The translations under genes and the position numbers were made by a program. The notes beneath the pieces were generated by a model. It was not told the DNA's origin and ran no database searches. It saw only the letters and a program-made list of their open reading frames with translations. From Escherichia coli (GTDB lineage Bacteria > Pseudomonadota > Gammaproteobacteria > Enterobacterales > Enterobacteriaceae), in NCBI RefSeq assembly GCF_001677475.2, contig NZ_CP015229.1: DNA of 64,000 nucleotides. One strand, given 5' to 3'. Positions 46,601 to 48,755 of the stretch are shown piece after piece. The number at the start of each line of letters is the position of its first letter. The stretch's first letter is position 1.

Positions 46601-48415
46601 GTGTTCACCGGGGACCGGGGCGGTGAAATCCGCCACCGGCTGGCACGTGATGCGGCGGGCCGGCTCACGGCAAAGGAGACAGCCGATGGCCATACGGAAT
46701 ACGTCCATGATGCGGCAGACCAGCTACTGGAAATCCGCCGCCGACGGTCGGATGCCGGGGAAACAGACGCACCGGAGATTATCCGTTTCAGTTACGACAG
46801 ACTGGGGCGGATGCTGACCGAGGAGACGGCGCAGGGCGTCCTGACCCATCAGTACGATGAACTCAGCAACCGGACAGCCACCACCTTTCCGGATGGCAGA
46901 ACGCAGCGTCATCTGTACTACGGCAGCGGCCATCTCCAGCAGATAAATCTGGACCGGGAGGTCATCAGCGAGTTCACACGTGACGCCCTGCACCGGGAAG
47001 TGCTCAGAAGTCAGGGGCGACTGAGCACGCGGCAGCTTTATGACCCCGCCGGGCGGCTGAAGCGCAGGGAGACATACAGCGGGATGCGCGGGGTGGTACC
47101 GGAGACGTTCACGGACCGGCAGTACAGCTACAGCGGCGAGGATGAATTGCTGAAGACGCGGCACAGCCGGCGGGGGGAAACGGATTACGTCTACGACCCC
47201 ACGGGGCGCATCACGGCGTGCCGCTCGGAGGATGAGGGGTATCTGGCGAGCTGGCAGTACGACGCGGCGGGAAACCTGCTGGGGAGGCGCGCGGGGGAAA
47301 GGGCCACGGCAGAAAACAGCGTGGTGCCGTTCAACCGGCTGATGTCTTACCGTGGTGTGCACTACCGTTATGACGAATTTGGCCGGACGGTGGAAAAGGA
47401 GGGCCGGAGCGGCACGCAGAGTTACCGTTATGATGCGGAACACCGGATGGTGGAAGTGACGACAGCGCGGGGGACATACCGGTATGTGTACGATGCGCTG
47501 GGGAGGCGGACGGAAAAACAGCACATCAGCCCTGACGGTAAAGCGTACAACCGGACGACATTTTTATGGGACGGAATGCGGCTGGCGCAGGAGAGCAGGC
47601 CGGAGGGAATAAGCAGCCTGTATATCTACAGCGACCCGGGGAGTTATGAACCGCTGGCGCGGGTGGATAAGGCGGGCAAAGAGGGCCCGAACCGGATACT
47701 GTATTTTCACACGGATGTGAACGGTGCGCCGGAAGAGATGACGGACAGTGACGGGAAAATCGTGTGGGAGACGGGGTATCAGGTCTGGGGTAACACGATA
47801 CAGGAGAAGGACCACGGCGGGGTGGAGCAGAACCTGCGCTACCAGGGACAGTACCTCGACAGGGAAACGGGGCTGCACTACAATCTGCACAGGTACTATG
47901 ATCCGGATGTCGGGCGGTTCATGGTAACGGACCCGATAGGGCTGGCGGGGGGGCTGAATCTTTATACTTATGCGCCTAATCCAGTAAGCTGGATAGATCC
48001 CCTTGGTTTAAGTTGTTACTTTAATTCTAAGTCTAATCGCTGGCATGACAGGCAGACAGGTCGTTTTACAAAACGACCAACAGATCCTTCAGAATTAGTT
48101 CATAATGGCCGAATTGACAAGGCTGATATAGATGTTTGGGCTAGTCAAGGAGGGATTCCAAATACATGGGGGCATGATCCGTTAAAATTCCCCAGTGGTG
48201 GTTTTAAATATGATGCTGGTAATTATACTGTTCATGGTCATGGTGCTAATCCATCTGCGGCAGCTAAATTTCCTAATTCTAATGCGGCAAATGGGCCGAC
48301 AGCGAGCATGAAAAATACTTCAACAGGTGAAGTGTTTAGAACCGATGGAACTTGGGGGACATTCAAATCAGATGCCAATGGTGCTCATATCCCCCTTGAT
48401 GGCTCACCTTATTGA
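43700..48415 (+). CDS. rhs: Rhs-family polymorphic toxin (T6SS effector) with prePAAR motif, TM segment, YD repeats and variable C-terminal toxin domain
   Basis: 1571 aa; N-terminal [10 protein letters not shown] (prePAAR) plus hydrophobic helices; many YD-type repeats; conserved [27 protein letters not shown] boundary followed by about 135 aa of unrelated AT-rich sequence. Confidence 0.85.
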   Translation: [1571 protein letters not shown]

Positions 48416-48425
48416 GATTATTAAT

Positions 48426-48755
48426 ATGAATTTGCAAGAAATAAAAAATAAAGTCTTATCTCTTCCTACAATAATGAATTTAGCGGATGAGCTATTAATA
48501 ATTGACGAGTTGATGACTATTGATGTTAATGATTTGATTGAAAATCAAGATATCTTTAAATCTATTATAGATGCATTAGAATTATCACATATTGATTCTG
48601 GGTTTATGGAGTTAACAGAAGAAAATGAGAGTTCATTTATAAACTTCTACAAATGGCTTAATAAAACAAATAATAAATTTAACTTGGGAATAAATGCTAA
48701 CACTATAGATAGTTTTAGTTTGACTGTTGAAGATGTGAAAAAAATGATGTTATAG
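48426..48755 (+). CDS. Putative Rhs immunity protein
   Basis: 109 aa, strongly AT-rich, ATG 11 nt after the rhs stop (ORF-track start 48327 is an in-frame upstream extension inside rhs). Confidence 0.55.
   Translation: MNLQEIKNKVLSLPTIMNLADELLIIDELMTIDVNDLIENQDIFKSIIDALELSHIDSGFMELTEENESSFINFYKWLNKTNNKFNLGINANTIDSFSLTVEDVKKMML

Follow-up and report, generated by a model that had tools for sequence, protein, structure and literature searches.

A rare Escherichia coli Rhs effector tail read as a divergent, HGH-type member of the Ntox30 superfamily with a PT7-like fold

Two described bacterial toxin families are closest to the element reported here, the C-terminal toxin tail of an Rhs protein and the immunity gene beside it in a 64,000-nucleotide stretch of the Escherichia coli contig NZ_CP015229.1 (NCBI RefSeq assembly GCF_001677475.2; "the window" below means this whole stretch of analysed DNA). 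The first, Ntox30 (PF15532, "Bacterial toxin 30"), was defined in 2012 by Zhang et al. as "All-beta; RxH, R, THIP", and its carriers belong to the type II, type VI and type VII secretion systems (T2SS, T6SS and T7SS, the last with WXG and LXG) or are TcdB/TcaC proteins with Rhs repeats (PMC3482391). The second, PT7, is a 78-amino-acid (aa) toxin domain from Firmicutes, represented by PT7(Bc) with PIM7 in Protein Data Bank (PDB) entry 8OWU (Nachmias et al., bioRxiv 10.1101/2021.10.19.465003). Its secretion by the T7SS is predicted from an LXG fusion. PT7 is toxic in E. coli and yeast, with loss of the DAPI signal in expressing cells, and each of the substitutions D37A, H47A and H73A abolishes the toxicity (the primers of Table S11 in that study give the local sequence). 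In the presence of Mg, the purified D37A and H47A variants broke down both plasmid and genomic DNA but left tRNA uncut, and EDTA stopped the reaction; PT7 is reported as a Mg-dependent non-specific endo-DNase. A density in the crystal pocket was fitted as a Mg ion, and the fold was described as new (10.1101/2021.10.19.465003).

Standard databases do not name the tail in the window, yet it is no orphan, and it represents a rare variant within a predicted family rather than a type of its own. Profile comparisons place it as a divergent, HGH-type member of the Ntox30 superfamily, beyond the reach of the current Pfam model. With somewhat more confidence than doubt, we read the locus as a whole as a T6SS-delivered Rhs toxin with its immunity protein, in which a divergent Ntox30 tail of PT7-like fold acts as a nuclease with DNA as the favoured substrate. 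That the locus is an intact Rhs toxin-immunity module, within an island of vgrG, a DcrB-related (Eag-type) gene and a prePAAR-Rhs gene, is well supported. Its features are as follows.

41184-43178, +: vgrG, 664 aa, encoding the T6SS spike protein and opening the island that continues with the DcrB-related gene and rhs; match above cutoff to NCBIfam TIGR03361 VI_Rhs_Vgr (E 2.8e-167, 557 bits)
43229-43681, +: Eag-type (DUF1795 / DcrB-related) putative chaperone gene for a prePAAR-Rhs effector, 150 aa, open reading frame (ORF)
43700-48415, +: full-length Rhs effector gene, 1571 aa, a single intact ORF with its translation
47996-48010, +: DPLGL, end of the conserved PxxxxDPxGL core/tail boundary and presumed autoproteolytic release point, read directly
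48011-48412, +: toxin tail, 134 aa (SCYF...GSPY), from the translation; stop codon at 48413-48415
48011-48073, +: tail residues 1-21, a basic beta-hairpin extension, optional in the family; strands at residues 2-5 and 10-13 in the model
48074-48412, +: tail residues 22-134, core toxin domain, assigned to a divergent Ntox30-superfamily / PT7-like fold
48426-48755, +: cognate immunity gene, 109 aa, unnamed family; ATG at 48426, 10 nt past the rhs stop
48765-48792, no single strand: terminator-like hairpin scoring on both strands, with a 10-11 bp stem, 6 GC pairs and a T-run on each strand

The Rhs protein consists, in order, of a putative prePAAR motif (residues 7-16), a hydrophobic segment, a PAAR-like region, the Rhs/YD shell and the toxin tail. 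Residues 7-16 fit AARxxDxxxH, which we take to be the prePAAR pattern. NCBIfam gave an RHS_core match in the protein and a weak match of the PAAR model on its N-terminus (E 6.8e-5; 22.9 bits, where the cutoff is 124). The core ends in ...WIDPLGL, directly followed by the tail, and cleavage at this point is presumed from what is known of Rhs proteins. The Rhs core has a GC content of 0.59-0.68, the tail one of 0.42-0.47 and the downstream ORF one of 0.26-0.32, and the break coincides with the DPLGL boundary. The 150-aa ORF at 43229-43681 had zero matches in NCBIfam; its position between Vgr and RHS is labelled "DcrB-related protein" in E. coli regions of 98.5-99.1% identity, and we take it as the Eag/DUF1795 chaperone position, with a putative role drawn from the literature (PMC6730261). 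The hairpin at 48765-48792 closes both the rhs-immunity unit and a convergent symE-like gene.

A preliminary description of the window, made from its sequence alone, had proposed a tail of about 135 residues after a conserved boundary, a switch to AT-rich codons and an immunity ORF starting 11 nt after the stop. The boundary, the drop in GC and the ATG at 48426 are borne out; the exact tail length is 134 aa and the gap is 10 nt. Its central proposal, an Rhs C-terminal toxin with cognate immunity, also stands, because of the VgrG/Eag-type/prePAAR-Rhs context, the C-terminal place of the domain on toxin carriers and the immunity family that travels along in distant loci. As in T6SS prePAAR-Rhs effectors, the Rhs/YD core closes with PxxxxDPxGL and leads into a variable tail, next to which the immunity gene lies.

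Direct look-ups did not assign the tail to a family. The only Pfam match was Ntox47 at E 0.17; it falls on the pre-toxin PxxxxDPxGL segment and was rejected as the identity of the tail. NCBIfam, PADLOC and PHROGs each gave 0 matches, and PDB sequence searches with the tail alone and with two profiles found no credible relative. An HNH or His-Me finger nuclease was also rejected, since neither the beta-beta-alpha-metal fold nor a match to a family hidden Markov model (HMM) was found.

Family profiles were more informative. A word-indexed search with the tail retrieved 19 clusters, from E. coli, E. marmotae, Snodgrassella, Kosakonia, Citrobacter, Pseudomonas, Azoarcus and Morganella. A 13-sequence profile, run exhaustively as an HMM against 1.84 billion representatives, gave 79 clusters at E<=1e-3, 40 of them at E<=1e-10. 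The domain is C-terminal in the full-length matches examined, and its carriers include Rhs, PAAR-like, LXG-like and signal-peptide proteins. Of 53 aligned core domains, each compared with Pfam separately, 18 matched Ntox30 at E<=1e-3 (best 3.3e-17) and 30 did so at E<=0.1; matches within the close clade were weak and limited to 2 of its 13 sequences (best 3.3e-4). A profile-profile comparison (hhalign) aligned the close clade with a classical set of 12 "WHSPD...THIPI" sequences, four of which match Pfam Ntox30, over 102 columns with a probability of 99.1% and E 1.1e-18.

The Ntox30 motifs can be read in the window tail, RxH as H75-G-H77 and THIP as A-H126-I-P. H77, H126 and G64 are invariant (53/53 each), T97 and P128 are each kept in 49/53, position 66 is K or R in 48/53 and position 80 is N or D in 50/53. 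The "R" of RxH, position 75, varies (H in 31, W in 10, K in 7 and R in 4 of the 53). In AHIP, the His is found in 53/53, the Ile in 47/53 and the Pro in 49/53, and the position before the His holds T in 20 sequences and A in 16. None of the alignment positions holds an invariant acidic residue, and the invariant polar residues are the two histidines. K66, H75, H77, N80 and H126 are candidate active-site residues of the core domain. Tail residues 1-21 are missing from an orphan copy in Buttiauxella and from most of the distant members, whose matches begin at profile position 22-30. The tail model has eight strands and five short helices, against the all-beta fold predicted for Ntox30 in 2012.

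The label "unrecognised type" given in the preliminary description thus describes the direct look-ups correctly, while the family profiles place the tail in the Ntox30 superfamily (PF15532). The remote-homology search and structure prediction it proposed went half way to a characterised Rhs C-terminal toxin family: Ntox30 is named and has a predicted activity, and PT7 is related at the level of fold and motif only. The tail is neither a new fold nor an orphan but a rare divergent variant of a predicted family. As a separate observation, P0021, an Rhs fragment with a core end close to that of the window, shares the first 33 tail residues identically (SCYF...ELVHNG) and continues beyond residue 33 as a different sub-variant of the same toxin core, which suggests that recombination took place within the toxin domain and not at DPxGL.

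The immunity gene encodes an acidic protein (pI 4.2; 19 Asp+Glu against 8 Lys+Arg), which is modelled as an all-alpha seven-helix bundle with a pLDDT of 90.9. Its homologues fall into 23 clusters, and all those with an organism name are from Enterobacteriaceae. Homologues from other genera are typically exactly 109 aa long and carry no Pfam annotation; those of 109 aa with 62-70% identity occur in Phytobacter, Superficieibacter, Kluyvera and Buttiauxella. The equal length of the homologues and the confident helical model uphold the earlier view of this ORF as a real gene. The immunity profile found no credible relative in the PDB, and a weak match (E 0.009) to the BRCT of S. pombe Brc1 was treated as chance.

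Toxin and immunity protein are found together in distant loci. In Buttiauxella (locus L002), the same toxin core forms the end of an orphan Rhs fragment, and an immunity gene of 69% identity follows 9 nt downstream. On a GC-rich metagenome contig (L005), the toxin homologue P0010 is followed after 15 nt by a match to the immunity profile (probability 99.3%, E 4.2e-20), and on another metagenome contig (L006) the Rhs-linked toxin homologue P0006 is likewise followed by such a match (probability 95%, E 3.3e-8). These pairs place toxin and immunity protein in one co-inherited family that extends beyond E. coli. Because the copy in L005 has a GC content of 0.52-0.59, the AT-richness in the window reflects the history of the cassette and is not a trait of the family. 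Toxin homologues also exist in a stand-alone form with a Sec-signal-peptide-like N-terminus in place of the Rhs carrier (L005 3001-3882, P0010 and P0012). The neighbours of P0010 are of housekeeping type (a MacB-like ABC transporter and a ComEC-like protein), the same immunity family is kept, and the immunity protein beside P0010 has no evident signal peptide. The pairing of a signal-peptide form of the toxin with such an immunity protein suggests a cytoplasmic target.

The tail was modelled with AlphaFold2 from a 13-sequence alignment (pLDDT 94.6, pTM 0.87). Foldseek of this model against AFDB50 gave 27 matches at E<=1e-3, on Rhs, PT-HINT, PT-TG, DUF638 (CdiA-like), LXG and VgrG carriers. The list ends in small Firmicutes proteins, two of them named "Transposase protein" and one "Bacterial toxin 30 domain-containing protein", and "Transposase" is also the NCBI name of PT7 family members. 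Many PT7-family proteins (P0119-P0162) and PDB entry 8OWU carry the "transposase" label in public records, which looks like a propagated misannotation. The full PT7 sequence was recovered from the PDB by way of the Table S11 primer fragments at their known spacing: MTKKEILEKLPEGWKYTENNGFVHVRDANDTIRMRI[D37]PPDKVTKYDHVHLYDENKNPLDLNGNIVDAKSPDAH73IPYKM. It has no match in Pfam, and 8owu was not among the PDB matches of a Firmicutes Ntox30-like query. Its C-terminal AHIP, with the essential His five residues from the end, is the THIP motif of Ntox30. We read the tail and PT7 as the same fold.

We propose that the Rhs protein, with the DcrB-related protein acting as its chaperone, would ride the VgrG spike into a neighbouring cell. 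The tail would be freed by autoproteolysis after DPLGL and would cut nucleic acid in the target cytoplasm, with a site around the invariant H77 and H126 that may be helped by K/R66 and N/D80. DNA is favoured because PT7, the only assayed relative, was reported as a Mg-dependent non-specific endo-DNase; this choice of substrate is itself tentative, and we hold it possible but somewhat short of probable. The 109-aa acidic helical protein would shield the producer, probably by occluding the active site.

Several observations weigh against this proposal. The Pfam Ntox30 model has no match to the window tail even at E<=10, and Foldseek of the tail model against the PDB found nothing (best E 0.9). 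The sequence link to PT7 is weak: the single PT7 sequence matched the family profiles over 20-23 columns with a probability of 2-3%, and a PT7 family profile, built after that comparison, matched the 53-sequence profile at E 1.4e-4 (probability 52%, 24 columns, at the L-x-(D/N)-G...HIP end) and the classical set at E 1.1e-3 (probability 20%, 48 columns). Only the 7-residue AHIP segment aligned with the close clade. These profile comparisons pair THIP/AHIP with AH73IP, and the classical-set alignment pairs R-W-H-x-P-D with R-I-D37-P-P-D40, leaving a 9-residue gap in PT7 that faces the PGSNxxxGPT loop. H126/H73, H77/D37 and N80/D40 are thus probably equivalent positions, a mapping that comes from low-probability alignments and not from superposition. 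Among the residues essential for PT7 toxicity, H73 is kept (as H126) and D37 is replaced by His, and PT7 H47 and H49 lie at the edges of the 9-residue gap, H47 opposite a residue other than His and H49 just behind the gap, with no His counterpart in the aligned sequence. The DNase assays of PT7 were run with point mutants, and PIM7 gave no block in vitro (10.1101/2021.10.19.465003). No biochemical test of Ntox30 was found in the searchable literature, including searches for PF15532 and "bacterial toxin 30". Finally, two invariant histidines and K/R66 in 48/53 sequences, with no invariant acidic residue, form the pattern on which an RNase would be predicted.

Indeed, Zhang et al. predict a metal-independent RNase for Ntox30 from two conserved histidines (PMC3482391), a 2023 review still gives Ntox30 as an "expected" RNase, and a review of the E. 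coli T6SS names Rhs-CT5 to CT8 (CT, C-terminal toxin) as putative RNases (PMC6730261). With the same module and delivery, the tail would then be a metal-independent endo-RNase that works like RNase A: H77 and H126 would provide general acid-base catalysis, K/R66 would stabilise the transition state, and the cut rRNA, tRNA or mRNA would be left with 2',3'-cyclic phosphate ends. We regard this as doubtful, though it deserves attention. The RNase activity of Ntox30 is a prediction only, whereas PT7, the sole assayed structural relative, did not cleave tRNA and needed a divalent metal. Position 80 (H77+3), which is N or D in 50/53 sequences and aligned, in an alignment of 20% probability, with the invariant D40 of PT7, may bind a metal, as may the H-x-x-(N/D) element as a whole.

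An activity that is neither DNase nor RNase lies, in our estimate, between doubtful and improbable. One form of it is another enzymatic activity at an H-x-H...H site, such as nucleotide or cofactor hydrolysis, a peptidase or another hydrolase, with the likeness to PT7 limited to the fold. The PT7 fold has a single solved representative and weak sequence links, half of the essential residues of PT7 are not conserved in the window family, and a form with a signal-peptide-like N-terminus exists (P0010, P0012). However, the C-terminal His of (A/T)HIP is essential in PT7 and invariant in the window family, the acidic immunity protein fits a nucleic-acid-binding surface, the PT7-binding site on PIM7 was described as negatively charged (10.1101/2021.10.19.465003), and the signal-peptide form keeps the immunity family without evident signal peptide that suggests a cytoplasmic target; we consider this form improbable. 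Equally improbable is that the HGH-type tail and the helical immunity protein make up a distinct family whose chemistry is neither that of a two-histidine RNase nor that of a PT7-style Mg-dependent DNase; it might, for instance, be an enzyme with a His/His/Lys site that attacks a different phosphodiester or nucleotide, built on a fold of which one example has been solved. That the cassette is an evolutionary relic with lost toxin function is very hard to believe, for although the tail is rare in E. coli and lies in a region with orphan fragments and copies of ISAs1, the 1571-aa reading frame is unbroken and holds all family-invariant residues, the immunity gene is intact with a length of 109 aa kept in other genera, and a second copy, in strain GF131, is 97.4% identical and likewise intact.

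The tail and immunity pair is much rarer than its carrier. A query of window positions 38000-48000, which covers vgrG, the Eag-type gene and the Rhs core, matched 394 genomes, and the Rhs gene is 98.5-99.1% identical to the best of these common E. coli alleles as far as nt 48000. The pair itself was found in one of 5,426 complete E. coli genomes, sensitive blastn included, the sole carrier being GF131, and in none of the PLSDB plasmids (tblastn). GF131 (L001, NZ_CP172134) carries at 4493-11440 the same rhs, immunity, symE-like and ISAs1 block as window positions 43482-50723, with about 97-98% identity. There the block is flanked by ybfA and ybgA; vgrG is lacking, and of the upstream gene only a 3' stub is left. 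The entire element thus seems to have been moved, or exchanged by recombination, between rhs loci. The flank at 52400-64000 of the window is the E. coli narZ/yddE region (about 97% identity).

No T6SS core genes were found in the window. The region upstream of vgrG, where a T6SS core cluster was expected, is instead a Mu-like myovirus prophage (about 10000-40100, +), which lies directly upstream of the vgrG island and holds baseplate genes in addition to the following.

17729-19264: prophage terminase
19261-20832: prophage portal
25767-27311: prophage tail sheath
28161-30026: prophage tape measure
36254-39135: prophage tail fibres
39352-40089: Mom-like DNA-modification gene, prophage right end

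E. coli strains with the same island match the window from about nt 40204 onward only. Between the prophage and vgrG are a 133-aa ORF (40208-40609) with no match and a 118-aa ORF (40606-40962, +) with a weak, below-cutoff match (E 2.3e-7) to NCBIfam NF045617, "putative T6SS immunity periplasmic lipoprotein". Downstream of the immunity gene lies an orphan array (48801-52372).

48801-49130, -: SymE-like toxin gene
49576-50712: intact ISAs1 transposase
50737-50922: 61-aa ORF overlapping the next ORF
50919-51239: 106-aa, very AT-rich ORF
51319-51648, -: second SymE-like gene
51890-52372: broken ISAs1 copy

The 61-aa and 106-aa ORFs resemble a shortened orphan toxin tip and the immunity gene belonging to it. 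In Buttiauxella, L002 3563-7757 holds a number of orphan Rhs tips that have a small ORF downstream and alternate with opposite-strand SymE-like genes. The window shows the same interleaved layout, so that an association of SymE-like genes with rhs cassettes seems to be conserved.

Rhs tails are known as a source of new toxin chemistries, and the value of the present tail is narrower. The current Ntox30 model misses the whole HGHG...AHIPL clade, in which about 40 clusters (50% identity) match the clade profile at E<=1e-10. Our analysis links Ntox30, a metal-independent RNase by the 2012 prediction, with PT7, a published DNase with a "novel fold" and no Pfam match, a connection made in none of the literature found. 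If this link is true, a prediction of long standing could be tested by a single experiment on any family member. Ntox30-type toxins are spread over T6SS, T7SS, CdiA-like and Sec-exported carriers, and the question raised is whether they are DNases, as reported for PT7, or RNases, as predicted in 2012. The conserved, so far unnamed immunity family of the HGH clade can be used for finding more members.

Among known systems, the likeness to RNase A-type catalysis is a comparison of working principle only: the family has two invariant histidines and a conserved Lys/Arg without an invariant acidic residue, whereas the fold of the tail is unrelated to RNase A and the catalysis is predicted. PIM7 was described with an "alpha1-betaA loop" (10.1101/2021.10.19.465003) and therefore contains a beta strand, unlike the all-alpha immunity protein of the window, whose profile matched none of the 8owu chains at E<=10; the two proteins appear unrelated. 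PT7 differs from the window tail in having Asp (D37) where the window family has His, in two further invariant histidines (H47 and H49), in the missing 9-residue PGSNxxxGPT loop, and in that it was reported as a Mg-dependent DNase, whereas the nuclease activity of the window tail is predicted. With Ntox30, the window clade shares the C-terminal place on Rhs, LXG/WXG and other polymorphic-toxin carriers, a similar domain length, the richness in beta strands, the His of RxH (H77) and the His-Ile-Pro of THIP. Unlike Ntox30, the window tail has H-G-H for RxH followed by a conserved G-x-N-P, adds a basic N-terminal hairpin of 21 aa, and belongs to a clade accompanied by a conserved immunity family, whereas Zhang et al. 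give no immunity family for Ntox30 (PMC3482391). The locus finally has the same architecture and delivery logic as the E. coli PAAR-Rhs-CT effectors with vgrG and eagR/DUF1795 of Ma et al. 2017, as presented in a review (PMC6730261). In its account of the E. coli Rhs CTs, that review gives only CT1, CT3 and CT5 as experimentally tested, and the window CT falls outside these three. Unlike the set of Ma et al. as presented there, the CT and immunity pair of the window is among the rarest in the species (1/5,426), carried on a common E. coli Rhs core.

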